Shown here one piece after another: positions 1 to 53,127 of a DNA stretch of 64,000 nt. The first letter of the stretch is position 1, and each line of letters begins with the position of its first letter. The notes under the pieces were generated by a model. The model ran no database searches and was not told where the DNA came from. It saw only the letters and a list, made by a program, of their open reading frames with translations. The DNA is taken from assembly GCA_039915645.1 (NCBI GenBank), contig JBDSMX010000106.1, positions 2,973 through 66,972 on the forward strand, read 5' to 3'. The DNA comes from Gemmatimonadales bacterium (lineage in GTDB: Bacteria > Gemmatimonadota > Gemmatimonadetes > Gemmatimonadales > GWC2-71-9). Made by a program: the position numbers and the translations under genes.

Positions 1-1085
1 GAGAGCCCCAAAGCGGTGAGCCGTTTGCGAAGAATGCGGTCGGCCGCCTTCGCCTTGTCATATGCATCGGGCCACGAGTAGACCAGCGACCCGACGGCCT
101 TGTAGCCGTAGAAGTAGGCGACCGACACCTTCAGCATCGGCGTCCGAGGGCTGCCCGTGATCCCGGAAACCTTGACCCGGTCCTTGCCTGTCTTCTTCAG
201 CTGGATCGAGGTGAAATCGACAATGCCATCCGGCGTGATGTAATTGGTCGGGTCACCCATTTCGTAGACCAGCTGTTCGGAAACCGATGCGATGTTGACG
301 ACGCCGCCGGTCCCAGGATGCTTGGTCACGGTGAAGGTGCCATCAGGCTCTGCCTCGGCCAACGGGAAGCCGACATCTTCGAGCCGCTTCACCTTGCGCC
401 AGTCGCGGAGCAGGTTCCCGCCCGAACTCTGGGCGCCGCATTCGAGGATGTGCCCCGCGATCGTGCCGGCGGCGATGCGGTCCCAGTCATCGGGAGACCA
501 GCCGAACTCGTGGACCAGCGGTCCGAGAGTGAGGCCGGTGTCGGTCACGCGCCCGGTGATCACGATGTTGGCGCCGCGATCGAGTGCTTCAACGACCGGC
601 ATCATCCCCAGATAGGCATTCGCCGAACGGACCTGATCGCGCACATCACTGAGCGGCCGGCCGGTATCCATGTTGGCGAAGAGTTCTCCGTCGGCAGTCA
701 GCGCGTCGAGGCGATCGAGCAGATCGTCGCCCGTGACCAGCGCGATCCGGATCTTGTCTCCAACGCCGAGACGGTTGGCGGCGGCCCGTACCGCCTCGGC
801 GCAGCCTCGCGGATTGACGCCGCCGGCATTCGAGATCACCCGGATGCCGCGCGAGGCCACATCGGGGAGAATCCGCTCCATCTGCGTCACGAAGTCGCGT
901 GCGTATCCGGCGTTGGGATCGCGCGATCGCTGCTTTTGCAGGATCGACATGGTGACTTCGGCGAGGTAGTCGAGCACGAGGTAGTCGATCTCACCACCCT
1001 GCACCTGCCGGAGCGGGGCCTCGAGCCAGTCGCCCCAGAATCCTTGCCCTGCAGCGATCACCACGCGCTCTTTGCGCTTGCTCAT
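1..1085 (-). CDS. AtuA-like protein (DUF1446 family); start at 1085, 3' end runs off the window
   Basis: Hand translation of the minus strand from ATG 1085 stays open to nt 1 ([66 protein letters not shown]). It is absent from the ORF track because no stop lies in the window. ATGA overlap with the stop of the upstream S8 gene. Confidence 0.7.
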
Positions 1086-3925
1086 TTCGGAATCCCTCCC
1101 TGCAATGCGATTTCGCGCGTCCAGATGGTGTCTTCGCCTTCCTGCGCGAGCACGAGAATGACCGGTGTGAACCCCGCCGGCAATTCGAGCGGCAGAGGGC
1201 CGGTGTGAAATCGTTGTTCCAGTGTCCTGCCTGGCGCGAGCGCCTGCGCGGCCCGCCCGCCGTCGTCGAGCCCGATGACCCGCTCGGCGTAGAAGCGGAC
1301 CTTCAGGTCGAGCTGCCAGGTCGTGGAATCCGTGACGGCAAATGCCGGCGCGAGCAGGAGTACGAGAGTATCGCCCGCCAGGCGAGCCGGAAGCTCCGGT
1401 GCCGCGCGGGCGAAGGCATAGTTGATCGGCGCCGATGCGATCTTGCGCCCGCTGCGGTCCTGAAAGGTGAACCCGAAATCGGTGAAACGGTCCCACTCCG
1501 CGCGCGGCATGCGGGCATCCACCTGGACCCGTGTCGCCCAGCTGGGCACTTTCACGGCAAGCCGAACAGGCGCAGCCGTTGTGCGACGCACCAGGATCGA
1601 TTGTTCCGCACCGACCAGACCGGCGCGCAACCGCAACGACACCGAGGAACCAATCAGGCTGCGTGCGGTTACGCGAAGTGAGTCGCCGGTGCGGGACGCC
1701 TCGAGTCGAGCCGGCGCACGGCGCACGGTCACGGTCGCAGCCGATGGCGCAAGCCTTCCCGAGGTAACCGCGACCTCGTAAAGCCCCGACTCGACGTCGC
1801 TGGCACTGAGGTCGAAAAGCGCGGCCCCATCGCCTGACCCCGCCGGGATTGCGGCACCATCACGAAACGGCATGCCGCCAGGTTCGTGCAGCGAGGCAGT
1901 GACCTGTGCATCGCCCTGCAAGGTTTCGACTTCGATCTGCATTCCACGACCGGTGTCGGCGGGAATCAGCACCCGGGCCACACCACCGGCCGCCACTCGA
2001 AGCGGCTGGGACACGACTCGGGCAATCGCTGGCAACGGCACCCGGACGACGACCGGCACCCGGGCGAGGATGCCATAGGAACTGTCGCGAATTCCGAGCT
2101 GCACTGCGGCGAACTGTACGCCCGGTTTGACGCTCGCGGCATCGACTCGTACGGTGAACTCGCCGCGACCATTCTGCAGTGCAAGCGTCGGCGGCACCTT
2201 GACCCACGGTTCCGTCGGTGTGAGTTGCAGCAACAGCGGCCCCGTCCCATCGCGCCGCTTCACAATGACGCGAGTCGACAACTCCCGGGCAGATGCCTCG
2301 GCACTTGTGGTGAGCCAGACGGCCCCGCGCGCTTGCAGTGCCCCAACCTCAATAGCGAGATCAGGAAGATCACGTGCCTGCGCCAACCACTCCCAGGCGC
2401 GAGTGAGGTCCGGCGTTCCGGCCCCTGCGTCCGACACCGTCGCCGCCGGTGGCAATGTGGAAGCGTTGCGCAGCGCCTGCGCGATCATCGTCGCATCGAT
2501 TGGCCGTCGCGCTGCGGGCAAGGAGGAGAGGAGTCGCGCGGCGAGGCCCGATGCGTACGGCGTCGCCATGCTGGTCCCGCTTTCCTGTTCGCCGCCGATG
2601 GCGAAATTGGGCACTGTTGAATACGCGATTCCGGGCACCACCAAGTCCGGGGCAGCCAACTCGCCGCCTCGACTCGAGAAGTCCGCGACTGGATCACTGC
2701 CGCTTTCCCGCGGCTCGAATCCTTCGAAGTTGCCCGGGTCCGTTGCGCCGATCGAGAGCACCCTGAACGCGCTGCCGGGAAAACCGACCGTGCTCAGTCC
2801 CGGACCATCATTGCCAGCGGCAACCAGCATCACGACATCCCGGTTCGCTGCCAGGATCGAATCAAAGCGGGCATCGATCGCGGCCCGGCCTTCGACTTCA
2901 TTGCCGACGCCAAACGAAAGATTGACCACCAACGGAAGGCGCCGCTCCCGCGCGAACGCGATGGCATAGCGTAGCGCCCGGAGCATCGACCCCGACACCG
3001 TCACCGCGCCTTGCGCATCGTTCGCGATCTTGAGGCCGAGGAGTCGCGCACCGGGCGCGACACCGTCGAATCCCTTGACGTCGTAGAGATCGTGTCCAGC
3101 CGCGATGCCCGACACGTGGCTACCGTGGCTGCTGGTATCGAAGAAGAGATCGAGCCCGGGCACTCCGGCGGAGTCGCTGAGGTTGACTGCGATCGACACG
3201 GGAGCGGGAAGATTGGTCGAGGTCCATCCGAATGCTTCGCGTGCGACGGCGTAGTCGCGGACGGGACGGTCGTTCGCGAATGAACCATCGCCATTGGCAT
3301 CGGCGAAAACGATCCACCCGGAACCGCCGTGGACCACGACAAGCGGCAGCGAATCGCCGACCGTGCCGTTGCCGTTGATGTCGGCTGCGGGGGCCTCACC
3401 AAGACGAAGCTCGTCGAGCGTGCCGCCCCAGATCGCCGCCCCGTCGGCCATCGCCGCGACGCGTCCAGCCCCAAGCATCGCGTGGCCGTTGACGATCAGC
3501 GTGTCGCCCCTGCGCACGACCGGCTGCAGAGCAATACGGCCCTCGCCGGAGAAGTCGCGCAGGTCGAGAATCTTGGATTGGCCATTGGTGGTGAGCTGCA
3601 GGCCAGGAATCGACGGATCGATGCCGCTATCGAGAATGGCGATCAGAACGCCGCGCCCGTCGAATTCCGGGTGAGCCTGGGCAAAACGGGGAATGCCGCT
3701 GGCCTTGAGCGGCATCATCCCGATTGATGCGGCCATTTCTGGTGCCGTGCTTCGTTGCGGTCGCGCCACCGGAGCCACGGTCGCCGCGGGTCCACTCGGC
3801 GGCGCGGGCGGTAGCGCCGGGGAGGGCGCGGACTGGGGCAGTTGCGGCAGTGGCGCCACCGCCGTGCGCGCCGCCGGTGAGCAGGCCACGACCATCAGAA
3901 CCAGACTGCTCCAGCGACGCTTCAT
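1082..3925 (-). CDS. Subtilisin-family (S8) serine peptidase, probable lipoprotein, with a roughly 170-aa insert between catalytic Asp and His (tripeptidyl-peptidase-II-like layout)
   Basis: 947-aa ORF. Catalytic motifs are ILDSGID (Asp), [13 protein letters not shown] (His) and [12 protein letters not shown] (Ser). The N-terminus [15 protein letters not shown] looks like a signal peptide plus lipobox. Confidence 0.85.
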
Positions 3926-3927
3926 GT

Positions 3928-5565
3928 TCAGCCGCGCAGCCCGTCGAGAACGAAGGGCCCGAGGTGGGGTCCGGCATTGTGTGACGTCACTCGCAGCAGG
4001 AACGCCAGCATATCACGGGTTTCCTCCGGCGTGATGATGGCATCCACGAAGCCCCTCGCCGCAGCATAGCGCGCATCGAGCTGCGCCTCGTAGTCGCCGC
4101 GCATCGCATCGACCGAGGTCTGGGTTCCGGCATCGAGTGGTTGCTTGGCCTGTTGCGCCTTCTGGATCGTCGGACCGTGCACCGCCATCACGGCGGCCTC
4201 GCCTTCCATCACCGCCATCCGCCCGGTGGGCCAGGAGACGATGAAGTCGGGATCGAATCCCTGGCCCGCCATGGCGTAGTAGCCTGCGCCGGAGGCGTGG
4301 TTCACCGTCAGCACCAGCTTCGGTACCACGGTGGTTGCCATCGCCTCCACAAAGTGGGCGCCGGCGCGAATGATTCCTTCCTGTTCTGCCTCGGGCCCGA
4401 CCATGAAACCGCTGACGTCCTGCACGAAAAGAATCGGCATCCGTTCGCGGTTGGCGGTCTCGATGAAATAGGCGACCTTCTCGGCGCTCTCGGTGTAGAC
4501 GATGCCACCAAATCGCGGCCTTTCGCCTTCCCTGCCCTTGATGATGCCTCGCTGGTTCGCGATCACGGCAACGGGATGCCCCTCGATCCGGGCATGGCCG
4601 CAGAGCATTTCACGAGCGACATCGGGCTGGAACTCATCGAGCTTGCCGTCATCGAGGACCGCATCGAGGACGTGGCGCATGTCGTAGGAGAGCCGGTGAT
4701 CATGTGGCAGCACGTCGTACAGCGTCGTCGCGGCGGTCTTCGCTGCTCGTGCCGGTGTCACGGCGTGCTGCAGCCCGGGAGTGACGGGTAGCCGACTGAC
4801 ATACTCACGGATCTGCGCCACGCAGTCGACATCGGTCTTGGCCCGATAGTGCGCCACGTTGCTCACCTGCGTGTGCATCTTCGCGCCGCCGAGCGATTCG
4901 GAGTCCACCGTCTGGCCGGTGGCGCCCTTCACGAGGTTCGGCCCGCCCAGTCCCATGAATGAGGTGCCTTCGACCATGAAGATCACATCGGAGAGCGCCG
5001 GCAGATAGGCGCCACCGGCGATGCAGCTGCCCATCACAGCGCTGATCTGCGGCACGTGGAGGTAGCGACGCATCAGCGAGTTGTAATAGAAGATGCGTGC
5101 CGCGCCATACTGCCCCGGAAAAACACCACCCTGATACGGGAGATTGACGCCAGCAGAATCGACGAGGTAGATGATCGGGATCCGCTGGCGCATGGCGACT
5201 TCCTGCGCGCGCAGGATCTTGGTAATCGTTTCCGGCCACCACGAGCCGGCCTTCACCGTGGCATCGTTGGCGACGACGACGACGTCGCGGCCGGCGACGA
5301 CACCCACGCCAGTGATCACACCGGCCGCAGGCGCCTCACCATCGTAGCGATCGTAGGCGATGAGTAGGCCGAGTTCGCACCAGGCTGCGCCCGGATCGAG
5401 CAGCGCAGTGACCCGTTCACGAGGAGAGAGTTGCCCTTTGGCGTGCATCTTCTCGACACGCTTGGGCCCGCCGCCCTCACGCAACCGGGCGGCGAGGGCG
5501 AGGTACTCATCAGTCAGCGCGCGCAGTCGGGTGACGCGCGGTGCGTCAGTCTTCGGTTTCGTCAT
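3928..5565 (-). CDS. Acyl-CoA carboxylase carboxyltransferase (beta) subunit, methylcrotonyl-/geranyl-CoA carboxylase beta-like
   Basis: 545-aa ORF resembling the carboxyltransferase family along its length (VVANDATVKAGSWWP, IYLVDSAGVNLP, AVMGSCIAGGAYLPA, two crotonase-like halves). No biotin-carrier or alpha subunit is present in the window. Confidence 0.8.
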   Translation of the reverse strand: MTKPKTDAPRVTRLRALTDEYLALAARLREGGGPKRVEKMHAKGQLSPRERVTALLDPGAAWCELGLLIAYDRYDGEAPAAGVITGVGVVAGRDVVVVANDATVKAGSWWPETITKILRAQEVAMRQRIPIIYLVDSAGVNLPYQGGVFPGQYGAARIFYYNSLMRRYLHVPQISAVMGSCIAGGAYLPALSDVIFMVEGTSFMGLGGPNLVKGATGQTVDSESLGGAKMHTQVSNVAHYRAKTDVDCVAQIREYVSRLPVTPGLQHAVTPARAAKTAATTLYDVLPHDHRLSYDMRHVLDAVLDDGKLDEFQPDVAREMLCGHARIEGHPVAVIANQRGIIKGREGERPRFGGIVYTESAEKVAYFIETANRERMPILFVQDVSGFMVGPEAEQEGIIRAGAHFVEAMATTVVPKLVLTVNHASGAGYYAMAGQGFDPDFIVSWPTGRMAVMEGEAAVMAVHGPTIQKAQQAKQPLDAGTQTSVDAMRGDYEAQLDARYAAARGFVDAIITPEETRDMLAFLLRVTSHNAGPHLGPFVLDGLRG

Positions 5566-5572
5566 CGGCAGT

Positions 5573-6007
5573 TCAGGGGCGGACGTTGATGCGCGCCCAC
5601 TCCTGGATGTAGGTCACCAGATCGCCAGTGGGCGTTCCAGGACCGAAGAGGCGCCCGATCCCCTGCGAATGCAGGGCATCCATGTCTTCCTGCGGGATGA
5701 TGCCGCCACCAGTCACCAGCACATCCGGTCGGCCCATCTCTTCGAGCAGCTTCCGGACCCGCGGGAAGAGCGTCATGTGCGCCCCCGACAGGATCGACAG
5801 ACCCACCACGTCAGCATCTTCCTGCACCGCGGCGGTCGCGATCATCTCCGGCGTCTGGTGCAGGCCGGTATAGATCACTTCCATCCCCGCATCACGGAGC
5901 GCTGCCGCGACGACCTTGGCTCCGCGGTCGTGACCGTCGAGTCCTGGCTTGGCCACGAGCACGCGGATGGGGCGAGTGAGCGGTGGGGCATCGGCAACTG
6001 CCATCAT
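5573..6007 (-). CDS. B12-binding small subunit of a split acyl-CoA mutase
   Basis: Start re-assigned to the ATGATG at 6007, 10 nt after the stop of the upstream gene; the tracked ORF start at 6124 would overlap that gene. DxHxxG cobalamin motif ([12 protein letters not shown]) and SILSGAH; 144 aa. Confidence 0.85.
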
Positions 6008-6017
6008 GAATGCGACC

Positions 6018-7175
6018 TCACTTGAAGCGAAGCAGGCCCGCGAGGCCGTCGACGGCCTCGGCAGCCTGCGTGTCGTAGAGCACGTCGAGGGCGACCCGCT
6101 GACGCAGCGCTTCCTCGATGGCATCGTCGATCACATCGACCGAAGGAACCACCTCGCCGTCGTCACGCAGATCGCGCGCGAGGGTGGAGAGCCGGCCCGT
6201 GGCCATCGAGCGAAAGCCGCTGACCGTGGCATCGCCACGCACTAGCAGCAGCCTGACCTGACCCTGCGAGAGCGCCTTGAGGGTCTCCCGGACGCCGTTG
6301 ACCGCCCAGCCGGTGCCGAGTCCTTCGGCGAGCTCCTCCACGTGACGCGTCTCCGAAATCCCGGCGTGGTGTTGCCGGACGTCCATAGTCAGATGATGCA
6401 CCGCATCCGGGGTCGCATCCTTGGGCGAGAGCCGAGCGAGTCCGATGAGTCTGTCGGCGACATAGTTGTGGAGATAGGGCTCCAGCGCACTGGCATCGTT
6501 TCCTGCACCGGCGATCACGACCTGATGGCCCGGCGAGGCGCGATCGAGTTCGAAGAGTGCCCGTGCCACCGACTCGAGATGCTGCTTCTTCTCGTTCTGG
6601 ATCCGGTTGTGGAAGGCGTGCTCGCCCGTCGCGTTACCGCGCGCGCCGACGGAGTGGAACCGACCACCGCGGGTCACCTCGGTGGTGACCTTGCGCACGA
6701 CTTTGGCCGCGTACGCCGTGACTTCCCAGATCAGGGCAGTCGCCCGATCCAGTGTCACGGTGAAGAGCCGACCGAACTCCTCCTCGCTCGAGGCGAGTTC
6801 GCGCACGAACGGCGTCCGATCCACGGCCAGGCGCGAGCGATGCACACGCGGCAAGGGGCGCACTTCGAAAAGCTTCGCTCCCGACGAGAGAAAGATCGCC
6901 ACGCCCTGCGTCTCGGGCAGCCGGTCGACATCCGACAGATACTCGAGCATCAATGCGAGGTCGCTCTTGATTGCTTCCTGCTGCGGCTTGGACCATCCCA
7001 TCGAGGGCAGCGCGTATTCCAGTTCCTTGATCCGGTTTTTGACCTTGACGAGGTATTTGCGACGCGCGCGATCACGCGGCTCGATCTTGAGGTAGCAGGT
7101 GATGACCGGGTGATTGCCGGGCTTCATCCGCAGCAGGTCTTTTCCGGGGGCGCGCTCTCGAGTGGTGGTGGCCAT
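6018..7175 (-). CDS. eRF1/Pelota-like protein (bacterial aeRF1-superfamily, Vms1/baeRF-type), function unknown
   Basis: 385 aa from ATG 7175, with a GAGGA Shine-Dalgarno in the 17-nt gap after the mutase large-subunit stop. Features: N-terminal [13 protein letters not shown], central [26 protein letters not shown] loop without GGQ, C-terminal [14 protein letters not shown] and [11 protein letters not shown] resembling eRF1/Pelota domain 3. Assigned from remembered family patterns, not from a search. Confidence 0.6.
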
Positions 7176-7192
7176 GATAAATCCTCGCTCTG

Positions 7193-8887
7193 CTAGAAGA
7201 ACACGGGCTCGCGGTAGGCGCCCCAGACTTCCTGGAGCACGTGCCGGATCTCGTAGAGGGTACAGTAGGCACGGGCACAATCGAGCATGGCTGGAATGAT
7301 GTTGACGTCGGCCCGCGCGGCAGCCTCCAGCGCGGAGAGACGGGTTGCGACAAGCGCGCTATCGCGAGTCGCGCGCATCCGGGCCATCCGGGCGCGCTGG
7401 GACACTTCTGCCTCGGCGTCGATCTTGAGAATCTCGATCGGTGCCTCGGTCTCTTCGACAAACGCATTGAGTCCGACGACCGTCTTCTGCCCGGTCTCGA
7501 CCTCGCGCTGGAACCGGGATGCCGATTGCGCGATCTCCCGCTGGAACCAGCCCGACTCGATTGCCGGCACGACGCCGCCGAGGGTCTCGACGTGCGCGAA
7601 GATCGCCTCGGCCTCGGCCTCTAGGCGGTCCGTCAGCGCTTCCACCAGATACGAGCCGCCCAGCGGGTCGGACGAATTCGGCACGCCGGTTTCGTAGGCG
7701 AGAATCTGCTGGGTGCGCAACGCAACGCGCACGGCGGTTTCGGTGGGCAGCGCCAGGGTTTCGTCAAGCGCGTTGGTGTGGAGCGATTGCGTGCCACCAA
7801 GCACCGCCGCCATGGCTTGGTAGGCGACGCGCGCCACGTTGTTCAATGGCTGCTGTGCCGTCAGCGAGACACCTGCGGTCTGGCAGTGGAACCGCATCTT
7901 GAGCGACCGTTCGTCTTGCGCACCGTACCGCTCTTTGAGGTGGCGGGCCCAGATGCGACGTGCGGCGCGCATCTTGGCGATTTCCTCGAAGAAGTCGTTG
8001 TGCACGTCCCAGAAGAAGGAGAGCCGGGGCGCGAACTGATCGACATCGAGACCTCGAGCCATCCCGTGCTCGACGTAGGTGAAGCCGTTGGCGAGCGTGA
8101 AGGCCAGTTCCTGCGCCGCGGTCGACCCGGCCTCGCGAATGTGGTATCCGGAAATCGAGATCGAATTCCACTTCGGCGTGTGGCTGCTGGTCCACTCGAA
8201 CAGATCGACGATGATCTTGAGCGACGGTTCCACCGGGTAGATCCAGGCGTGCTGGGCGACGAACTCCTTGAGGATGTCGTTCTGGATGGTTCCCTGCAGC
8301 TTCGCGATGGGGACACCCTGTCGCTCGGCGGCGGCGACGAAGAAACAGAAGAGAATCGCTGCCGGCCCGTTGATGGTCATCGAGACCGAGACCTGATCGA
8401 GCGGAATTCCCTCGAACAGCGTTTCCATGTCGTCGAGCGAGGAGATCGCCACACCGCACTTGCCGACTTCTCCCTCCGACCGCGGATGATCGGAGTCGTA
8501 GCCCATCAGCGTCGGAAAATCGAATGCAACCGAGAGTCCGGTCTGCCCGCGCTCGAGCAGGAACTTGTAGCGCTGGTTGGTATCCTCGGCGGTGCCGAAG
8601 CCAGCAAACTGTCGCATGGTCCAGAGGCGCCCGCGATACATCGTGGGGTGGATGCCACGCGTGTACGGGTAGTCACCAGGAAGCGGAGAAGCGGCGCTGA
8701 CATCGAGGGGAGTGTAGACCGGCTCGATCGGAAGGCCGGAGATAGTCGTGAAATCGCTATCGGAGCGGACCGGCAATTTCGCCGTCGCGGCCTTCCATGC
8801 CGCGATCTCGGCTCGGAGTCGTACCAGTTCGTCTTCCTGCAAGGCGAGGCGATCGAGCAATGAATCGTGGGATGCCAGACCGGTCAT
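7193..8887 (-). CDS. Acyl-CoA mutase large (catalytic) subunit, methylmalonyl-/isobutyryl-CoA mutase family
   Basis: 564-aa ORF with [45 protein letters not shown] and [12 protein letters not shown]. It has no fused B12 domain, so the mutase is split. Substrate is not assigned (see findings). Confidence 0.85.
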
Positions 8888-9924
8888 ACCCGGGCTCCTT
8901 CCTTCAGCGTGGCGACGATCTCGGCTGCCAGTTCATACGGGCTCAGCTGGCCCGCGGTGACATCGTCGAGGCGCGCCGCAATGGTGTCCTCGGCGTGGGA
9001 TTCCTGCCAGACCCAGCGTCGGGTCGCACGGTCGACGACTTCGCGGGTCCGTTCGGCGAGTCGTTCGCGGCGCCGCTGTTCGAGCGCACCGCTGCTCTCC
9101 ATCCAGTCCCAGTGCCTGTCGAGGGCGGCGATCAATTCCTCCACCCCCTCACCTTTCGCCGCGACTCCCAGCAGCACGGGCGCTCGCCAACCGTCATCGG
9201 AGGGATGCCCATCCACTGGCGCGGCCGCGGCCTTGCTCTTCAGCGCGCCGTGGTGCGCCGGCATGTTCCGGAGCGCCTTCCCCATCCGCAGGTCGAGCGC
9301 CAACTCCACTTCGCGACGAACCTTGTCGGCGCCGGGTCGATCGGCCTTGTTCACGAGGAAGCAGTCGGCGATTTCCATCACACCGGATTTCAGAGCCTGG
9401 ATCCCGTCACCCGACTCCGGCACCAGGACCAGAATGGTGCTGTCCGCCATTCGGGCGACGTCCAGCTCCGATTGCCCGACACCGACGGTCTCCACGAGGA
9501 TACGATCAAATCCGGCCGCGTCGAGGAGATCGCACACCTCACGAGTCGCAGTCGCGAGCCCTCCAAGCGAGCCGCGGGTCGCCATCGAGCGGATGTAGAC
9601 CCCGGGATCGAGGGCGATCTGCTCCATGCGGATGCGGTCACCAAGCAGCGCGCCGCCCGAGAATGGCGAGGTTGGATCGACCGCCACGACGGCCACGCGC
9701 AGCCCGGCGGTCCGGTAGGCGGAGACAAGCCGCTCGGTCAGGGTCGACTTCCCGGCGCCGGGAGGGCCAGTGATGCCAATTCGGCGAGCACGCCCGAGGC
9801 GGGGATGGATTGCTGCCAGAAGTTCTTCGAAGCCGCTGCGGCCGTTTTCCACTACCGAGACCGCGCGGGCCAGTGCCGCGACTTTTCCAGCCAGCAATTG
9901 GGTCAACAACAGGTCATCCGCCAT
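8884..9924 (-). CDS. meaB: MeaB/ArgK-type G-protein chaperone for B12 mutases
   Basis: Start re-assigned to ATG 9924 ([11 protein letters not shown]..), just after the mgtE stop at 9951. P-loop [23 protein letters not shown] and NKAD. ATGA overlap with the mutase start. Confidence 0.85.
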
Positions 9925-9950
9925 GCTGGAAATTACCACTATTACAGGAC

Positions 9951-11291
9951 TTAGAGCAAAATCGCCGTGGCGAGTCCGAGCAGGAGGCCGAAGCCGCAGA
10001 CGTCGGTGAAAGTGGTAACAAAAATCGATGATGCGATTGCCGGATCGACGCCAAGGCGTTCGAGCAGCACCGGAACGAACGACCCAGCAAACCCGGCGAC
10101 GAAAAGATTGCCGCTGAGCGCAAGGAAGACCACCAGCCCCATCCGCCACGTCGAGCCGAGCAGGACCGAGACCCCGGCAACCACGATGCCGATGGCGACG
10201 CCGTTGATGATCCCCACCAGAATTTCCTTGGTGATGATCGCCCGGCTCTGGTCAATGGGTACCTGCCCCAGGGAGAGACGGCGTACCGACACTGCCAGCG
10301 CCTGCGTGCCGGCGTTGCCCCCCATCCCGGCAACGATCGGCATCCAGATCGCCAACAAGGGGATTCTGGCGATGGAGTCGTTGAAGTAGAGCACGACTGC
10401 CGCCGCGAGGAATGCCGTCAGAAGATTGACGTAGAGCCAGGGGAGTCGACTCCGCACTGCACTCGACCACCGCGCCGAGAGCTCTTCGTCCGGCGAGACA
10501 CCGCCGAATCGCAGCAGGTCCTCGGTCGCCTCGGCCTCGGAAACGTCACTGACGTCGTCGTAGGTGACCCGGCCGAGGAGTCGGCCGTTGGGATCCACCA
10601 CAGGAAGCGCGACGAGGTCGTAGCGTGACATGATCCGGGCGACTTCCTCCTGGTCGACTTCGGCGCCGACGCGGATGTCGGCGTCCTCCATCACATCGCG
10701 CACCAGGCGGGACTGAGCGGTGATCACGAGCTGCTTGAACGACAGCGAGCCGACCAGGCGACGCGCGGTATCAACGACAAAGATTTCGGTGACGTCATCA
10801 ACATCTTCTGCCTGCCGGCGGACCGCCTCCAGCGCCAGTGCCACCGTGTCAAGATCCGTCACCGTGACGAGGTGCGTTGTCATCAGACCGCCGGCCGTTT
10901 CCTCATCGTAGCGAAGCAGGCGGTCGACGTCGGCGCGATCCTCGACACCGGCAAGAATCCGCTCCTGCTCTTCGGGCTCGAGTTCACCGAGCAGGTCAGC
11001 GGCATCGTCGTCCTCGAGCTCATCGACGATCTCGGCGGCCTGTTCGGTATCGAGTGCCGCAACGATTTCTTCGGCGTGCGCTTCGGCCGGCAGCTCGACC
11101 AGCGCCTGCGAGGAGAGCTCTGGCGGGAGCGCGCGGACCAGGGCGAGACGCTCATCCTCGTCGAGGGAAGCGAGGACGTCGGCGAGGTCGGCCGGCTCCA
11201 GTTCCCAGGCCAGCTGAACGAAGGTTTCGAGTCGCCCTTCGCGGACGAGCAGCACGAGTTCGTCGAGCCGGCTATCAGCGGCCGGATTCAT
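9951..11291 (-). CDS. mgtE: Magnesium transporter MgtE
   Basis: 446-aa ORF with an acidic N-terminal MgtE_N region, a CBS pair and a TM domain carrying GMGGNAGTQ. ATGA overlap with the upstream gene. Confidence 0.9.
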   Translation of the reverse strand: MNPAADSRLDELVLLVREGRLETFVQLAWELEPADLADVLASLDEDERLALVRALPPELSSQALVELPAEAHAEEIVAALDTEQAAEIVDELEDDDAADLLGELEPEEQERILAGVEDRADVDRLLRYDEETAGGLMTTHLVTVTDLDTVALALEAVRRQAEDVDDVTEIFVVDTARRLVGSLSFKQLVITAQSRLVRDVMEDADIRVGAEVDQEEVARIMSRYDLVALPVVDPNGRLLGRVTYDDVSDVSEAEATEDLLRFGGVSPDEELSARWSSAVRSRLPWLYVNLLTAFLAAAVVLYFNDSIARIPLLAIWMPIVAGMGGNAGTQALAVSVRRLSLGQVPIDQSRAIITKEILVGIINGVAIGIVVAGVSVLLGSTWRMGLVVFLALSGNLFVAGFAGSFVPVLLERLGVDPAIASSIFVTTFTDVCGFGLLLGLATAILL

Positions 11292-12478
11292 CCCGCGATC
11301 CGGTCGAGATCGAGTGGCGCCGCGGTGCCGCGCCGCACCACGAGACGCTCGATGCGCGTCGGTGAAGCCTGCATCACGTCGATCTCGAGGCCGCGCAGCG
11401 CGAAGCGTTCACCCGCCACTGGAATCCTGCCCACCAACTCGGCAAGCAATCCTCCGAACGATGCGGCACCGCGAGCAGGGAGTTGCACTCCGAAATGCTG
11501 CGCCACCATCTGGGGAGCTTCCGAGCCGTCGAGCTCGAGGAGACTGCCGGAGACCGCGGTCACGACCGGTGGATCGCCCTCTCCCTCTTCGGAGATCTCG
11601 CCGATGAGGCCCTCGAGCAGATCTTCGAAGGTCACCAGGCCAGCCGTGCCGCCGAACTCATCGAGCACGATGGCGAGATGCCGGTGGTCGCGCTGCATGT
11701 CGAGCAGCAGATCGCCAGCGAGGCGACTGACCGGCGCGTACGAGACCGGGCGCACCGGCAGCACATCATCCGGGCGCTGCTTGAAGAGGTCGAAAGCATG
11801 CACCATTCCGGTGATGTCATCGAGCGTGCCACGATAGACCGGAACGCGGGTATAGCCGGATTCCGCGAAGGTGGCGAGAACCTGTGAATGCGTGGCGTCG
11901 GCCGGCACGGCGATCATCTCGGTCCGCGGTGTCATGATCTGGCGCACCGAGCGCTCGGCGAAGGTCATGACACCGCCGACCATCACCAGCTCCTCACCAC
12001 CGAGCCCGGTGGCGTTCCCTTCACGCGCAAGCGCACGGACATCGTCGGCGGGATCGCTGTTGCGCGCAGGAAGGACGAACGCGAGCAGCGCGCTCCAGCT
12101 GCGCAATCCCGACCCCATCCATTCGAGCGTCCGTTCAGCGCGCGGCGCGGTGAACCACCGCGGCAGCAGGTAGCCCCCGAGCAGGGTGGTGGGCACCAGC
12201 AGGAAGGCGATGATGAGCACGAGTTGTGGCAGCAGCAGTTCGCCAAGCAGCCCGGGAACAACCGCGCCAATCAGGGCGACACCCAGCGAGGTGGCCGCGA
12301 CCGATGCCGCGACCTGCCGCTGCGTCGCTGACACCCACTCGAGCGAATCGTCGCCACCGCGGAGTCGACGCGAAATGGTTTCCGCGAGGGTCGCGCGCGC
12401 GGTCGTCACCAGAGCCGCTGCGCCGGATGAGCCGAAGAAGGCCACCAGCAGGCCGGCGATCAGGAGCAGCCAGTTCAC
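11288..12478 (-). CDS. CNNM/CorC-family protein (DUF21 TM domain + CBS pair + CorC_HlyC)
   Basis: 396 aa with N-terminal TM helices, IMTPRTEMIAV, a CBS pair and a C-terminal transporter-associated domain. GTG start in a GTGA overlap with the upstream paralog. Confidence 0.8.
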   Translation of the reverse strand: MNWLLLIAGLLVAFFGSSGAAALVTTARATLAETISRRLRGGDDSLEWVSATQRQVAASVAATSLGVALIGAVVPGLLGELLLPQLVLIIAFLLVPTTLLGGYLLPRWFTAPRAERTLEWMGSGLRSWSALLAFVLPARNSDPADDVRALAREGNATGLGGEELVMVGGVMTFAERSVRQIMTPRTEMIAVPADATHSQVLATFAESGYTRVPVYRGTLDDITGMVHAFDLFKQRPDDVLPVRPVSYAPVSRLAGDLLLDMQRDHRHLAIVLDEFGGTAGLVTFEDLLEGLIGEISEEGEGDPPVVTAVSGSLLELDGSEAPQMVAQHFGVQLPARGAASFGGLLAELVGRIPVAGERFALRGLEIDVMQASPTRIERLVVRRGTAAPLDLDRIAG

Positions 12479-13668
12479 TGAGTCGCCTCCTGCTCGATCG
12501 GCATCTCGGCAGTATGTGGCGCCCAGAATGCGACCCGCCGAATGCGCCGTCGCACCACGAGTTCAATCACCACTTTCCAGCCATCGATCTCCATCGCCTC
12601 ACCGGCGCGCGGCACGCGTCCAAGCGCCGCGAGCACGAGTCCGCCCACAGTGGCGACATCCTCGCGCTCGAAGTCGTGCTCGAGCTCGGCTTCGAGATCG
12701 GCAAGCGGCACGCCGCCCTCGACGACCCAGTGTCCATCCGGCAGTTGCTGAACCGGCTTCACTTCGTCGACATCGTGCTCGTCCTGAATTTCGCCAACGA
12801 TCTGCTCCAGAATGTCTTCAAGTGTGACCAGTCCAGCGGTACCGCCGAACTCGTCGACCACCACTGCCAGGTGACCCGGGCCGCGCTGGAAATCCCGCAA
12901 TTGGCGATCGAGTGTCTTGGCCGTCGGTACGAACGATGCCGGGCGAATCAGCGACTGCCAGTCGTCGGTCGGCGGCGGCGCGGCGTAGAGGCGTGGCAGG
13001 ACGTCCTTGGCATAGATCACGCCGATCACGGCATCCGGGTGACCGTCGAGCACCAGCAGTCGCGCATGCTCACTCCGTCGCAAGGTCGCGACGACCTGCG
13101 GCTCGGTCTCGTCGACCTGCACGGCGATGATGTCGAGCCGCGGCGTCATCACCTCGGCCACCTGCATCTCGGCCAGCGAGAAGACGCCGAGTGCCATCTC
13201 CTGGGGCGAGTGCCCGTCGGGACGGGCTGTGACGCGCGAGGGATCAACGCGGCCCCCGTCGAACCGGGTCGCCATCCAGAGGAGTGGAGCGAAGAGTGGG
13301 CGCGAGGCGAGCGCGAGTTGGCGCGCGTAGGGTACGATTTCCGGTGCCAGCGTCGCGAGGAGTCGCGGCGCGAGATCGCCGACGGTCCAGACCAGGACGG
13401 CGACCAACAGCACGCGGATGAGCGCGAGTGCTGGCGGATAGGCCCACCAGGCAACCGCGGTAGCTGCAATTGCAGCGGCGGCGGTAAGGGAGGCGAGATG
13501 AATGACGTGGAGCACCCGTTCCGGCGGGAGTTCATCCGCACTCGGGTCGCGCGCGAGCGCTCGTGCGCCAAGCTCGGTATCGCCTTCGCCCGCGAGGGCG
13601 ACCAGCCCGGCCCAGAGCATCACGATACCGGCGATCGCGGGCCACATCGCCTGCAGCAGCGCGGTCAT
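12475..13668 (-). CDS. CNNM/CorC-family protein (DUF21 + CBS pair + CorC_HlyC), tandem paralog
   Basis: Same architecture as the neighbouring gene (VMTPRLDIIAV). Start placed at ATG 13668, which forms an ATGA overlap with the ybeY stop; the tracked start at 13704 is also possible. Confidence 0.8.
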   Translation of the reverse strand: MTALLQAMWPAIAGIVMLWAGLVALAGEGDTELGARALARDPSADELPPERVLHVIHLASLTAAAAIAATAVAWWAYPPALALIRVLLVAVLVWTVGDLAPRLLATLAPEIVPYARQLALASRPLFAPLLWMATRFDGGRVDPSRVTARPDGHSPQEMALGVFSLAEMQVAEVMTPRLDIIAVQVDETEPQVVATLRRSEHARLLVLDGHPDAVIGVIYAKDVLPRLYAAPPPTDDWQSLIRPASFVPTAKTLDRQLRDFQRGPGHLAVVVDEFGGTAGLVTLEDILEQIVGEIQDEHDVDEVKPVQQLPDGHWVVEGGVPLADLEAELEHDFEREDVATVGGLVLAALGRVPRAGEAMEIDGWKVVIELVVRRRIRRVAFWAPHTAEMPIEQEATQ

Positions 13669-14096
13669 GTGAGCGCCCTGACATAATGCTCCTGCTTCTG
13701 CCACATCGGCGATGCGGTCCGCCCTTCACCCTCGGGATGATCGTAGCCGAGGACGTGGAGCGTGCCGTGCACCACGAGCCGCACCAGCTCCTCGCGGACG
13801 CGAATCCCGCGGCTGTGCGCTTCGCGCGCGGCGACCGCAGGACAGATGTAGAGATCGCCCGTGAGCGAACCGTCCGGCATCGGCAACGAGAATGAGATGA
13901 CGTCGGTGGCCCAGTCGTGGTCCTTGTACTCGGCGTTGAGGTTCCGCATTCGCCGTGGACCGAGAAAGGTCACCACAAAGGATGCGTCGCGACGCTCGCC
14001 GTCGAGCACCCGCGTGACTGCCTCGCGAACGACGCGCGTCGGCAATTTCCCTGCGGTGCCACCCACCACCACATCGGCGCGCGCGGGGCGACTCAT
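13665..14096 (-). CDS. ybeY: rRNA maturation endoribonuclease YbeY
   Basis: Zinc motif HGTLHVLGYDH. ATG at 14096 overlaps the phoH stop by 1 nt (TGATG); a TTG at 14099 is the alternative start. Confidence 0.9.
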   Translation of the reverse strand: MSRPARADVVVGGTAGKLPTRVVREAVTRVLDGERRDASFVVTFLGPRRMRNLNAEYKDHDWATDVISFSLPMPDGSLTGDLYICPAVAAREAHSRGIRVREELVRLVVHGTLHVLGYDHPEGEGRTASPMWQKQEHYVRALT

Positions 14097-15052
14097 CAAC
14101 CCGCCTGATCCTCCGCGTACGCGCGGATGATGTCACGCACCAGACGATGACGCACCACGTCCTCGTCTGTGAGGTAGTGAAAGCCGATCCCTTCGATCCC
14201 CGGCAGCACGCGCTCGATCTGCACGAGGCCACTGTCCTCCCGCCTCGGCAAGTCGATCTGCGTCTTGTCGCCGGTCACGACCACCTTGCTGTTCACTCCC
14301 AGGCGCGTGAGGAACATCTTCATCTGGGCGATCGTGGCGTTCTGCGCTTCGTCGAGGATGATGAACGCGTCGGCGAGTGTCCGGCCACGCATATATGCCA
14401 GCGGCGCGATCTCGATCGTGCGGGTTTCCAGCGCCTTCTGGACCTTCTCGTGCGGCATCATGTCTTCGAGCGCATCGTAGAGCGGACGGAGATACGGATC
14501 CACCTTCTGCTGCAGGTCGCCGGGAAGAAAGCCGAGCGACTCGCCGGCCTCGACCGCTGGCCGAGCGAGCACGATACGCTTGACCCGCTTGCGAGCGAGT
14601 GCTTCGACAGCCTTGGCCACCGCGAGATAGGTCTTCCCCGTCCCTGCGGGCCCGATGCCGATCACGATGTCGTGATTGTTGATGACGTTGAGGTATTCCC
14701 GCTGCCCTGCCGTCTTGGCCATGATGGCGCGACGCATTCCCGGAATGACCACCTTGAGGCCATCACCGGCCGTCGCCACTTCCGCCACGTGCCCATCACT
14801 TGCGAGGCGATACACGTCCTCAGGCTCGATCGGCTGTCCCGCACGCGCCAGGTCGATGAATCCCTGAACCACCGGCGTCGCACGTTCGATCTGCGCCAGA
14901 GAGCCGAGCAGCGTGATGGCATCGCCACGCTGGGAAATTCGCACGCCGATCGCGCGTTGAATCTCCGCGAAGTTGGCTTCATTCACGCCCGCAAGCAGGA
15001 GAGGATCCGCCCCTTCGGCGTTGAGCGTATGGCGGATGTCCTCACTATGCAT
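14096..15052 (-). CDS. phoH: PhoH-like ATPase (YbeZ)
   Basis: Walker A GPAGTGKTYLAVA and the conserved phoH-ybeY-corC order. Start taken at ATG 15052 (MHSEDIRH), an 8-nt overlap with aspS. Confidence 0.85.
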   Translation of the reverse strand: MHSEDIRHTLNAEGADPLLLAGVNEANFAEIQRAIGVRISQRGDAITLLGSLAQIERATPVVQGFIDLARAGQPIEPEDVYRLASDGHVAEVATAGDGLKVVIPGMRRAIMAKTAGQREYLNVINNHDIVIGIGPAGTGKTYLAVAKAVEALARKRVKRIVLARPAVEAGESLGFLPGDLQQKVDPYLRPLYDALEDMMPHEKVQKALETRTIEIAPLAYMRGRTLADAFIILDEAQNATIAQMKMFLTRLGVNSKVVVTGDKTQIDLPRREDSGLVQIERVLPGIEGIGFHYLTDEDVVRHRLVRDIIRAYAEDQAG

Positions 15053-16826
15053 TCGGTGTCCCCACGGTAGTCTGGAGATGCAAGGCGGCAAGATCCTTTG
15101 TGGCGACGGTCACGGGCGCCCCTTCGAAGAGTGCCCGGGCAGCCGCCGTCTTAGGAAACGCAATCACGTCACGGAGCGAGGGCGCACCCGCGAGCAGCAT
15201 GGCAATGCGGTCGAAGCCCAGTGCAAATCCGCCATGCGGTGGTGCGCCCGAACCCAGTGCGTTGAGCAGGAATCCGAAGCGACGCTGCTGCTCCTCGGCC
15301 GGGATCCCCAGAAAACGGAACACTGTTCCCTGCAACACCGGATCCGTAATCCGGATCGAGCCGCTGCCGAGTTCACTGCCGTTGTAGACGGCATCATAGT
15401 GAAGCGCGCGGCAGCGCTGCGGTTCCGTTTCGAGATACTGCAGGTCGTCTGGATGCGGAGACGTAAACGGATGGTGGGTGAACACCCAGCTGTCGGTTGC
15501 GGTGTCATGCTCGAAGAGCGGGAAATCCACCACCCACGCAAAAGCGTGCTTCACCTTCGGCACCACACCGGGGTGACGGGTGAGCGCCGTCCGCACGGCG
15601 TGGAGTGCCGGATGGGTCACCACGTCCTTGCCGACCACGGCGACGAAGAGGTCACCGACCGCAGCTCCAGTCTCGGTCAGCGCCTTTGCACCGATCGCCT
15701 TGACGCCCTGCCCTTCCCAACCGGCCTCGGCGCGTCTGGCCCAGATGAGTCCCCCCGCGCCAGCTCCCTTGGCGGTTTCGCCGAGCTGGTCGAGTTCCTT
15801 GCGACTGATGGTCCCGAGTCCCGGAGCCACTATCGCGCGGACCCGCCCGCCGGTCGCGATGCCCTCGCGGACAAACTCGGCGGCATCGTCCCCGATCTTC
15901 GCGGTGACATCCTGGATCTCGAGACCGAAACGCAGGTCCGGCTTGTCGATCCCGAACCGTTCCATCGCATCGCGGTGGGTCAAGCGCTGAAACGGGACCG
16001 AGGCCGATTCCCCGGCTTCATCCCAGAGCTCGAGCAGGACCTTCTCGATCACCGGAAGGATGTCCTCCTGTCCGACGAACGAGGCCTCGAGGTCAATCTG
16101 CGTGAACTCCGGCTGACGATCGGCGCGGAGATCTTCATCGCGGAAGCAGCGCGCGAGCTGGAAGTAGCGATCGAAGCCGGCCACCATCAACAGCTGCTTG
16201 TAGATCTGCGGCGACTGGGGCAGCGCGTAGAACTCGCCCGGATGGACTCGCGAAGGCACGAGGTAGTCACGGGCGCCCTCAGGCGTCGGCTTGGTGAGGA
16301 TCGGCGTTTCGATTTCGAGGAAGCCGAGGTCGGTCAAGGTTCGACGCGCCCGCTGCAGCAAGCGGTGGCGCATGATGATGTTGGCCTGGAGCTCGGGGCG
16401 ACGGAGGTCGAGCACCCGGTGCTCGAGCCGCAGCTCTTCCGATGCCAGCTCCTCGCCTTCGCGTCGGGCAACCTGGATCGCCGGGGTCACCGCCGGCCCG
16501 ACAACCCGGATCTCCCGGACCTGCACTTCGATTTCGCGCGAGGTCATGCCGGCATCCCGGGCCGGTTCATGACGAAGCGCAACCACACCTTCGACCAGCA
16601 CCACAGTCTCGGCACCAAGGGTCGCCGCGCGCGAGAGGACCTCCGGCGAGGTCCACGAGGGGTCGCAGGAAAGCTGGACCAGCCCATCCCGATCGCGCAG
16701 ATCAAGGAAGACGATTCCACCGAGATCGCGGCGCCGGTGGATCCAGCCGCCGAGACGAACGGTAGCGCCGAGCTCGGCGCGGGTCAGTGAACCAGCGCGA
16801 TGGGTACGGAGAGAGGTGCTGTGCAT
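15045..16826 (-). CDS. aspS: Aspartyl-tRNA synthetase
   Basis: 593-aa class II synthetase with an N-terminal OB fold (GWIHRRRDLGGIVFLDLRD), FRDEDLRADRQPEFTQID and GGFALGFDR. Confidence 0.95.
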   Translation of the reverse strand: MHSTSLRTHRAGSLTRAELGATVRLGGWIHRRRDLGGIVFLDLRDRDGLVQLSCDPSWTSPEVLSRAATLGAETVVLVEGVVALRHEPARDAGMTSREIEVQVREIRVVGPAVTPAIQVARREGEELASEELRLEHRVLDLRRPELQANIIMRHRLLQRARRTLTDLGFLEIETPILTKPTPEGARDYLVPSRVHPGEFYALPQSPQIYKQLLMVAGFDRYFQLARCFRDEDLRADRQPEFTQIDLEASFVGQEDILPVIEKVLLELWDEAGESASVPFQRLTHRDAMERFGIDKPDLRFGLEIQDVTAKIGDDAAEFVREGIATGGRVRAIVAPGLGTISRKELDQLGETAKGAGAGGLIWARRAEAGWEGQGVKAIGAKALTETGAAVGDLFVAVVGKDVVTHPALHAVRTALTRHPGVVPKVKHAFAWVVDFPLFEHDTATDSWVFTHHPFTSPHPDDLQYLETEPQRCRALHYDAVYNGSELGSGSIRITDPVLQGTVFRFLGIPAEEQQRRFGFLLNALGSGAPPHGGFALGFDRIAMLLAGAPSLRDVIAFPKTAAARALFEGAPVTVATKDLAALHLQTTVGTPNA

Positions 16827-29680: not shown

Positions 29681-30879
29681 GGCGTCCCGTGGAGAAGCGC
29701 GGCGACATGGGCCACGTCCTTGTCGCCGCGGCCGCTGAGACAGAGGAGCACGATTTCCTCGGCGGTCCAGCGGCCGCGCACCGATTCGATCCAGGCGATG
29801 GCGTGGGCGGTCTCGAGGGCCGGGATGATCCCCTCGAGTCGGCAAAACTGCTGGAAGGCCGCGAGCGCAGCGGTGTCGCCGATGGCAGTGTATTCCACGC
29901 GACCGGAATCGTGCAGCCAGCTGTGCTCCGGGCCGACCCCGGGATAGTCGAGTCCAGCCGATACCGAGTGCGCCGGCGATACCTGTCCATCGGCGTCCTG
30001 CAGCAGATAGGAGAGCGATCCGTGCAGCACTCCGGGCGAGCCGGCGGTGAGTGTCGCACTGTGATGGCCGCTGGACACGCCTTCGCCCGCTGCTTCGACA
30101 CCGACCATTTGCACGTCGGCGTCACTGAGGAATCCGGCGAACATGCCCATGGCGTTCGATCCGCCGCCGACACACGCCACAACCGTCTTCGGCAACCGAC
30201 CGGTGAGGGCGAGCAGCTGCTCGCGTGATTCGCGGCCGATCACCGATTGGAAGTCGCGCACCATTCTCGGAAACGGATCGGGACCGACCACCGATCCGAT
30301 GATGTAGTGCGTGCTCGGCACGTTGGTGACCCAGTCGCGCAGCGCTTCGTTGGTGGCGTCCTTGAGCGTTCGCGTTCCGGAAGAGACCGGCACGACCGTG
30401 GCACCGAGGAGTTGCATCCGGTAGACGTTGAGCGCCTGCCGTGCCACATCCTCCTCCCCCATGTACACCACGCACTCGAGCCCGAAGCGGGCGCAGATCG
30501 TCGCGGTGGCCACGCCATGCTGTCCGGCGCCGGTCTCGGCGATGATGCGACGCTTCCCCATCCGGCGCGCCAGCAACGCCTGGCCGATCGTGTTGTTGAT
30601 CTTGTGGGCGCCGGTGTGGTTGAGATCCTCGCGCTTGAGGAGGACGCGGGCGCCGACCAGCGCGCTGAAGCGAGGCGCCTCCGAGAGCCGCGACGGCCTG
30701 CCGACAATGTCGCGCAGCAGGGTGTGGTACTCCTCCCAGAACGCCGGCTCGCTTCGAGCCTGATCATAGAGGGCAGTCAGGTCGTCGAGTGCGGCGACCA
30801 GCGTCTCGGGGACGTAGCGCCCCCCGTACGGGCCGAACCGACCCTCGACCGCAGTCTCAGGAGGAAGTGCGAGCGTCAC
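29677..30879 (-). CDS. trpB: Tryptophan synthase beta chain
   Basis: [22 protein letters not shown] (PLP lysine) and GGGSNA. GTG 30879 is preferred because GGAG lies 6 nt upstream; ATG 30915 is the alternative. Confidence 0.95.
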
Positions 30880-53113: not shown

Positions 53114-53127
53114 ATGCAACCTGAAAG

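Follow-up and report, generated by a model that had tools for sequence, protein, structure and literature searches.

Gene Order and Spacing at the Locus

The window analyzed here is a 64,000-nt stretch of DNA from a Gemmatimonadales metagenome-assembled genome (MAG), and its coordinates are given as positions in that stretch. On the minus strand, a gene for a 385-aa protein of the aeRF1 superfamily is flanked by the genes for the two subunits of a B12 acyl-CoA mutase, in the order meaB, mutase large subunit, 385-aa open reading frame (ORF), and B12-binding small subunit. This order, with gaps of 17 nt (containing GAGGA) and 10 nt around the 385-aa gene, had been described in a first-pass annotation and was confirmed. 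The genes and spacers were as follows:

8884..9924, minus strand: MeaB-type G-protein chaperone, putative start at the ATG at 9924 (PF03308, E = 2e-93; TIGR00750, 328 bits)
8887..7193, minus strand: mutase large (substrate-binding) subunit, 564 aa, isobutyryl-CoA mutase (ICM)-type signature (PF01642, E = 5e-226)
7176..7192, minus strand: 17-nt spacer, which reads CAGAGCGAGGATTTATC
7175..6018, minus strand: baeRF family 10 gene (Balon-like, aeRF1 superfamily), 385 aa, ATG start (ORF and translation, Pfam, AlphaFold2/Foldseek)
6008..6017, minus strand: 10-nt spacer ahead of the small-subunit ATG, read from the sequence like the 17-nt spacer
6007..5573, minus strand: B12-binding small subunit, 144 aa, ATG start, DGHDRG His-on motif (PF02310, E = 1e-26; TIGR00640, 174 bits)

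The 3' end of meaB and the start of the large-subunit gene overlap by 4 nt, and the large-subunit gene terminates in TAG. The GAGGA in the 17-nt spacer is a Shine-Dalgarno sequence located 6 nt 5' of the baeRF ATG. The baeRF gene ends in TGA (6020..6018), and a GAGG that overlaps this stop codon lies 5' of the small-subunit ATG. Spacing this tight would allow the baeRF gene to be co-transcribed with its flanking genes, which the first-pass annotation had judged very likely. With a Shine-Dalgarno sequence at each of the two short spacers, expression of the baeRF gene would in practice be tied to the operon. A longer ORF with a TTG start (7280..6018, 420 aa) was discarded because the N termini of the orthologs align to the ATG at 7175 (alignment A1).

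The mutase is ICM-like by its specificity signature. At positions that we take from the mutase literature to be substrate-specificity residues, it has Phe for Tyr89 (RQFAGF) and Gln for Arg207 (KEFVAQ) of methylmalonyl-CoA mutase (MCM), and Ala for Asp117 (SVAFD) of 2-hydroxyisobutyryl-CoA mutase (HCM). An identity as MCM was rejected on these positions in favor of an ICM-type enzyme. The closest solved structure of the large subunit is HcmA (4r3u). Isobutyryl-/butyryl-CoA and isovaleryl-/pivalyl-CoA are candidate substrates, as are other compounds. The first-pass annotation had called the mutase split; this is no anomaly, because separate large and small subunits are the native architecture of the ICM/HCM class. 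As in IcmA/IcmB (with a MeaB-like chaperone) and HcmA/HcmB, there is a large subunit of ~560 aa and a B12 subunit of ~140 aa, which here flank the baeRF gene. In contrast to this locus, the icm and hcm loci described so far are not known to contain a gene of the aeRF1 type, and the substrate here is predicted by signature.

Fold and Family of the 385-aa Protein

A database entry with exactly the sequence of the 385-aa protein derives from a Gemmatimonadales MAG (P0001). The protein scored above the Pfam gathering threshold for baeRF_family10 (PF18854; 31.5 bits versus 27.1; E = 2.5e-7; aa 122 to 266), and the same profile matched 61 of 61 aligned relatives, with a best E value of 3e-33. Sub-threshold Pfam matches were to baeRF families 2, 3, and 12 and, weakly, to eRF1_3 (aa 275 to 385). 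NCBIfam yielded weak, though consistent, matches to three curated ribosome hibernation factor families (E = 2e-12 to 7e-9), which carry the names of Rv2629, AOC03_06830 (Balon), and MSMEG_1130, and also to aRF1/eRF1.

An AlphaFold2 (AF2) model with 15 orthologs as input (mean predicted local distance difference test score [pLDDT], 76.9) was compared with the PDB by Foldseek. The top matches were the ribosome-bound Balon chains 8v9j_z, 8v9l_z, 8v9k_z, and 8rd8_B, with template modeling (TM) scores of 0.65/0.69 for Msmeg1130 (E = 2e-18), 0.61/0.64 for Rv2629, and 0.56/0.60 for Balon of P. urativorans. The E values for aRF1/eRF1 were similar to those for Balon, but the TM scores were just 0.27 to 0.47, and Pelota/Dom34 ranked after these. 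Matches to aRF1, eRF1, and Pelota had E values of 1e-15 to 1e-4 over ~300 to 400 aligned columns, and the Foldseek probability was 1.0 for Balon, aRF1, eRF1, and Pelota. A family profile made from 61 relatives (23 to 70% identity) gave full-length alignments with MSMEG_1130 (E = 6e-32), aRF1 (3e-23), Rv2629 (1e-18), and P. urativorans Balon (4e-13), and its E value against Pelota was 4e-15.

Because the Pfam, NCBIfam, AF2/Foldseek, and profile results agree, the assignment of a three-domain aeRF1-superfamily fold, with an N-terminal domain, an RNase H-like middle domain, and a Pelota-type C-terminal domain, is solid. The first-pass annotation had proposed an aeRF1/Pelota-type fold, which is borne out by the above-threshold baeRF_family10 match and the Foldseek probability, and the motifs that it had quoted (aa 22 to 34, 168 to 186, 299 to 312, and 375 to 385) are all present. 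The domains were assigned as follows:

6816..7175, minus strand: N-terminal domain, ~aa 1 to 120, limits approximate (invariant positions in A1, AF2 secondary structure, aRF1/MSMEG_1130 profile alignment)
6411..6815, minus strand: middle domain (RNase H-like, release factor core), ~aa 121 to 255 (PF18854 match at aa 122 to 266, AF2 model)
6021..6410, minus strand: C-terminal domain, similar to domain 3 of Pelota/eRF1 (weak eRF1_3 match, alignments, AF2 model)

A basic block without variation, YLK.EPRDR.R.KY..K.KNR, lies in the N-terminal domain, and alignment A1 has ~25 invariant Arg/Lys residues in all. The C-terminal domain carries a GLAGLLRF[KR] motif (GLAGLLRFK in the window protein), which is common to aRF1, Pelota, and Balon, and is predicted by the model to have a beta-hairpin insert at aa ~318 to 345, with short strands (320 to 323 and 342 to 345) within GFRS..GRL...GEVVPS. 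In the wider family, the consensus at this insert is G.RC...G.L......C, and the region is possibly a degenerate Zn ribbon-type insert.

The nearest characterized relatives are the Balon hibernation factors, which comprise P. urativorans AOC03_06830, M. smegmatis MSMEG_1130, and M. tuberculosis Rv2629 (Helena-Bueno et al., Nature 2024, PMC10901736). In view of this 2024 work and of the three NCBIfam models, the statement in the first-pass annotation that aeRF1 clades are essentially uncharacterized is outdated. The window protein resembles the Balon factors in having the three domains of the aeRF1 architecture but neither NIKS nor GGQ, in giving its top whole-chain structural match (TM, 0.56 to 0.69) and full-length profile homology to them, in the LLRF-type end of its C-terminal domain, and in a gene context that differs between lineages. 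The predicted hairpin of its C-terminal domain is possibly a counterpart of the beta-hairpin insertion that Balon has on the EF-Tu side of this domain. It differs from them in that the identity is only 16 to 19%, far under the NCBIfam equivalog cutoffs, in its membership of Pfam family 10, and in its location in a catabolic mutase operon instead of beside RaiA or stress genes. With PF18854 the protein shares the three-domain layout as well as the above-threshold score, whereas the Gemmatimonadota clade departs from that family in having Glu for the catalytic-type Gln and a longer loop. Its likeness to aRF1/eRF1 and Pelota/Dom34 extends to fold, domain order, and the C-terminal motif, but the TM scores were 0.24 to 0.47, NIKS and GGQ are missing, and the protein is a bacterial paralog that coexists with transfer-messenger RNA (tmRNA) rescue.

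Recognition and Catalytic Motifs

Neither NIKS nor GGQ was found in the sequence of the protein or in the alignments; the lack of GGQ agrees with the first-pass annotation. The place of the GGQ loop is taken by an extended loop:

6618..6674, minus strand: extended loop at the GGQ loop position, aa 168 to 186 (invariant positions in A1, model pLDDT, alignment A2)

The ends of this loop are conserved (R169, G170, and R172 on one side and E185, N190, and R191 on the other), with R169, G170, R172, and E185 invariant in A1, and in the clade they read RGG[RK].H ... G.GE[HR]. The center is variable, with pLDDT values of <50 over aa 173 to 181. The loop of the window protein includes RGGR, the second Gly of which is variable, and has no Gln. 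In alignment A2, the GGWSQ.R.QRH of distant family 10 members aligns with the Gemmatimonadota G.GE[HR], and Glu185 is invariant at the position of the Gln. Family 10 often retains a conserved catalytic-type Gln, which is possibly catalytic (Burroughs and Aravind 2019, PMC6514570). The aligned Gemmatimonadota sequences lack this Gln, and the protein has neither the GGQ/GGxSQ loop nor the stop codon recognition motif of class I release factors. The invariant Glu at the Gln position argues against release factor chemistry and in favor of a noncatalytic mode like that of Balon or Dom34.

An active rescue or release factor, that is, a peptidyl-tRNA hydrolase or an alternative terminator that would free ribosomes stalled in starvation, is quite improbable. 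Such a factor would be in keeping with the possibly catalytic Gln flagged for family 10, with the GGWSQ of its distant members, and with the conserved loop ends in the clade. Against this, Glu replaces Gln and the Gly-Gly pair is not kept in the aligned Gemmatimonadota, NIKS is absent, the loop center is variable and poorly modeled, and the nearest structures are those of the noncatalytic Balon. The window also encodes a tmRNA, so that canonical rescue exists:

53125-53488, minus strand: tmRNA (ssrA), full length (Rfam RF00023, 127 bits)

The first-pass annotation had suggested a ribosome rescue or peptidyl-tRNA hydrolase-type factor; hydrolase activity is unlikely in view of the invariant Glu at the Gln position of the family.

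Family 10 as a whole varies at the catalytic loop (A2, aa 160 to 205), which reads GGWSQ.R.QRH, GGW.GYEE, or, in Gemmatimonadota, PGWGE[HR]. Active and inactive forms may therefore coexist within a single Pfam family.

Conservation of the Gene Order

Synteny was surveyed with one genome per GTDB species, in which loci were searched with the window proteins by tblastn and then counted. A total of 276 relatives were found, and the best 80 loci were analyzed; all 80 were from Gemmatimonadota, apart from one labeled Bacillota and one labeled "uncultured bacterium." With mutL and mutS denoting the large- and small-subunit genes of the mutase, 36 loci had mutL upstream and mutS directly downstream of the baeRF gene, and a further 26 had mutL upstream and one extra gene before mutS. 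Another 14 loci were cut off on one side, with the other side agreeing with the mutL-baeRF-mutS sandwich, and 4 were exceptions. The sandwich was thus present at 62 of the 66 loci that were readable on both sides, which indicates that the gene order is not due to chance, and it spans two deep subclades, with baeRF protein identities of 51 to 90%. The first-pass annotation had named as a refuting observation that orthologs in related genomes never sit beside mutase or meaB genes; instead, they recur between mutase genes. In many orthologous loci, mgtE is conserved upstream.

The extra gene between the baeRF gene and mutS at the 26 fully readable loci encodes a HAD-superfamily hydrolase (PF00702). 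The gap between mutL and mutS has therefore taken up two unrelated genes. The hydrolase gene, for example, at 8058-8822 (plus strand) of locus L045, was seen at ~30 other clade B loci as well and belongs to a single deep subclade. The locus labeled "Bacillota bacterium" (L075; JBLMWC010000099.1) has a full meaB-mutL-baeRF-HAD-mutS-carboxyltransferase array and nests in clade B; it is probably a misbinned or mislabeled MAG contig.

The linkage to mutase genes is restricted to one Gemmatimonadales clade. Distant family 10 homologs (31 to 42% identity), at least two of which came from Gemmatimonadota MAGs, adjoined a mutase gene in none of the eight cases that were looked up. Their neighbors were Usp/YkuD, DUF4342/FtsH, AsnC/MarR/NiFe-hydrogenase, two-component system, ADP-forming acyl-CoA synthetase, and ArsA_HSP20 genes. 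Varied and often stress-related contexts have been reported for Balon genes (PMC10901736) and likewise for baeRF-1 families (PMC6514570), and the contexts found here (Usp, FtsH, ArsA_HSP20, regulators, and hydrogenase) fit those reports. At L089 (72-3499, on a single 4.5-kb contig), a 34%-identity homolog follows a gene of the ADP-forming acyl-CoA synthetase type after a gap of 27 nt, which is a second, independent adjacency of a family 10 gene to CoA metabolism.

Loci without Mutase Genes

The four exceptions to the sandwich are L023, L035, L020, and L042. At L023 and L035, the order is mgtE-baeRF-carboxyltransferase, and meaB and the mutase genes are absent at the locus; L020 lacks the mutase large subunit at the locus; and L042 has a differing upstream region, with a divergent second mutase set upstream on the opposite strand. 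In addition, at L085/86 (P0121, a relative with 50% identity), the order is CorC-CorC-MgtE-ABC1-SulP-baeRF-carboxyltransferase-...-S8 peptidase-enoyl-CoA hydratase, with the mutase genes absent at the locus and an ABC1 kinase and a SulP/STAS transporter in place of meaB-mutL. All of these loci (L023, L035, L085/L086, L020, and L042) have lost meaB, mutase genes, or both, and at each of them an intact baeRF gene is followed by the carboxyltransferase gene.

In a neighbor-joining distance tree, L020, L023, L035, and L085/86 were nested inside mutase-flanked clades, and L042 branched at the base of the whole clade. Since the mutase-less loci nest in this way, the sandwich appears to be ancestral and the mutase genes to have been lost repeatedly; loss is preferred because mutL and mutS would otherwise have had to be gained independently on the upstream and downstream sides, which is far less likely. 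The reverse possibility, with the mutase-less mgtE-baeRF-carboxyltransferase order as ancestral, was rejected on the nesting of these loci, which in a simple distance tree is no proof.

The baeRF genes of L023, L035, L020, and L085/86 contain no internal stop codons. Their integrity was gauged by the retention of 89 conserved residues, defined as positions with ≥97% conservation in the rest of the clade, and not by the ratio of nonsynonymous to synonymous substitution rates, since synonymous sites are saturated at 50 to 70% protein identity. L023 retained 89 of these residues, L035 87, L020 85, and L085/86 81, and homologs from unrelated contexts shared 55 to 69 of the 89.

These intact genes bear on the proposal, made in the first-pass annotation, that the protein may serve in subunit assembly or as a chaperone. 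Recruitment of the aeRF1 fold to a nontranslational role in the mutase system, for example, to bridge the subunits or to load or repair B12 with the MeaB GTPase, is highly improbable, although the gene lies exactly between the subunit genes and near meaB throughout the clade, and one distant homolog (L089) follows an acyl-CoA synthetase gene. Proteins of the aeRF1 family habitually pair with GTPases, which would also suit such a role; MeaB, in contrast, belongs to the SIMIBI class of GTPases and has no relation to the translational GTPases that aeRF1 domains bind. Intact, fully conserved copies are still found at loci that are missing meaB together with both mutase genes or the large-subunit gene alone, so that co-occurrence with mutase genes is not obligatory at the locus level, and the clade-conserved residues are largely those that homologs from unrelated contexts share. 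No Pfam or NCBIfam match of the protein to known B12 mutase accessory families (MeaB/MeaI/MeaH, adenosyltransferase) was found, and we know of no characterized ICM, HCM, or MCM system that needs an aeRF1-type partner. Since the gene persists in relatives whose loci no longer have the mutase genes, its product is probably a ribosome factor that is co-expressed with the operon and does not assist the mutase.

A different question is whether the position of such a factor has any regulatory meaning. The gene may encode a Balon-like factor and yet simply have become fixed where it once inserted, at a permissive site between cistrons of a long and flexible codirectional array, a view that we regard as rather unlikely. 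The same mutL-mutS gap accepted the unrelated HAD hydrolase gene, the ABC1 kinase and SulP transporter genes replaced meaB-mutL at L085/86, repeated mutase loss left the baeRF gene unaffected, and an intervening gene would cost little where the ICM-type subunits are separate by nature. Set against these points are the stability of the sandwich over two deep subclades and nearly all of the readable genomes, and the short Shine-Dalgarno-bearing spacers, which tie expression to the operon.

The Surrounding Operon

The carboxyltransferase gene is the most persistent neighbor of the baeRF gene and adjoins it even at mutase-less loci. In the window, the operon continues downstream of the small subunit and is preceded by a further array:

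3928..5565, minus strand: acyl-CoA carboxyltransferase (MCC-beta/AccD1-like), 7 nt after the small-subunit gene (PF01039, E = 1e-129)
1082..3925, minus strand: S8/tripeptidyl-peptidase II-like peptidase, 2 nt after the carboxyltransferase gene (PF00082, PF21223)
9951..16826, minus strand: aspS, phoH, ybeY, two CorC/CBS genes, and mgtE, with overlaps or very short gaps (Pfam)

The best PDB match of the carboxyltransferase was an unspecified carboxyltransferase chain, ahead of AccD1, PCC beta, and MCC beta; AccD1, MCC beta, and one PCC beta scored 344 to 372 bits, and most PCC beta chains scored ~255 bits. An enoyl-CoA hydratase gene comes after these genes in L085. The gene content suggests an operon for the catabolism or scavenging of peptides and branched-chain acyl-CoA. 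Together with the upstream genes, which function in ribosome maturation and Mg2+ homeostasis, it forms a codirectional, nearly gapless array of 15.7 kb (1082-16826, minus strand) from aspS, phoH, ybeY, CorC, CorC, and mgtE to the S8 peptidase gene. A consensus scan of positions 800 to 14500, specific to sigma-70-like promoters and intrinsic terminators, found neither; this agrees with one long transcription unit and is weak evidence for it.

Proposed Role of the baeRF Protein

The explanation toward which we lean, with modest confidence, is that the protein is a Balon-like, inert A-site ribosome factor that is co-transcribed with a catabolic operon, and that its tie to the mutase is one of co-expression dating from an ancient insertion. 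In outline, a divergent baeRF family 10 member would act as Balon does, as a three-domain mimic of tRNA or release factors, docking in the ribosomal A site and probably delivered there by EF-Tu via its C-terminal domain. It would neither read stop codons nor hydrolyze peptidyl-tRNA, and ribosomes would be parked or protected. The gene would have landed between the ICM-type subunit genes in the ancestor of a large Gemmatimonadales clade and would since then have been transcribed, and probably translationally coupled, with the meaB-mutL-baeRF-mutS-carboxyltransferase-S8 peptidase operon. The link to the mutase would then amount to co-expression, with ribosome silencing made alongside starvation-type catabolism, and would involve no physical partnership.

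Several observations weigh against this explanation. The NCBIfam hibernation family scores fell far short of their cutoffs (NF052287, 42.6 versus 330 bits; NF052288, 35.1 versus 480; NF052289, 46.9 versus 320), and no relative in alignment A2 could be placed above the equivalog cutoffs, the best E value being 5e-32. Three named features of Balon, the HP motif of the N-terminal domain and the lasso loop and bL27 trap of the middle domain, were not located, the main text of the Balon paper giving no residue numbers for them. The extended loop at aa 168 to 186 could not be equated with either the lasso or the trap, and the N-terminal domain has a single His-Pro pair (H21-P22), which is not conserved in A1 or A2. 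The loop that replaces GGQ is fairly conserved, which would fit another activity too. HPF/RaiA, the commonest neighbor of Balon genes, was not found in the window by Pfam. The absence of mutase genes in L023, L035, L085/86, and L020 was judged at the locus only, and the sandwich has been kept across ~50% protein divergence, more than simple hitchhiking needs. In another reading, which we consider very improbable, the protein would couple translation to B12 acyl-CoA metabolism, physically or through regulation; for example, it might bind MeaB or the mutase subunits, or sense the status of acyl-CoA or the cofactor, and so gate ribosome silencing. Joint action of the products would then account for the conserved sandwich, and in mutase-less genomes the partner would be encoded at another site.

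A partial precedent comes from M. tuberculosis, in which Rv1496 is presumably a MeaB homolog. The mutA-mutB-mazE4-mazF4-Rv1496 genes of that species have overlapping or nearly abutting coordinates and place a translation-arresting module inside a B12 mutase cluster (PMC8477398). That module differs from the baeRF gene in being a toxin-antitoxin pair (mRNA interferase) that has no aeRF1 fold and is unrelated in sequence, and in lying between the mutase and meaB and not between the mutase subunits.

The fold, the family, and the occurrence of Balon-type genes in differing operons across phyla are already published. The new element is an undescribed operon context, well conserved within one clade and restricted to it, for a divergent representative of this family. 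The first-pass annotation knew of no description of this linkage, and none was found in the searchable literature: a search on Balon/aeRF1 and methylmalonyl-CoA mutase returned no relevant paper; neither the Balon paper (PMC10901736) nor the baeRF paper (PMC6514570) contains "mutase," "MeaB," or "Gemmatimonad"; and a 2025 hibernation factor preprint contains neither "mutase" nor "Gemmatimonad."

The Gemmatimonadales are an abundant, mostly uncultured soil order. If the favored explanation is true, they make a Balon-type factor from the same transcript as an operon that scavenges peptides and branched-chain acyl-CoA, a simple tie of ribosome silencing to a starvation diet, and the range of Balon-like factors would widen to include baeRF family 10 and a phylum that the main text of the Balon paper does not name. 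A comparison of lineages that have the flanking mutase genes with lineages that lack them offers a natural experiment on whether operon position matters. The finding mainly adds a well-documented case and no new principle.

Other Features of the Window

An Rfam scan of the whole window matched the tmRNA gene as its sole hit, with no cobalamin riboswitch or other leader. No second copy of the baeRF gene was found in the window, the remainder of which consists of ordinary housekeeping genes. Three sizeable ORFs without a Pfam match at an E value of ≤1e-5 (28463-29947, plus strand; 35850-37475, minus strand; and 47514-48716, minus strand) have GC skew of the coding type at their codon positions.

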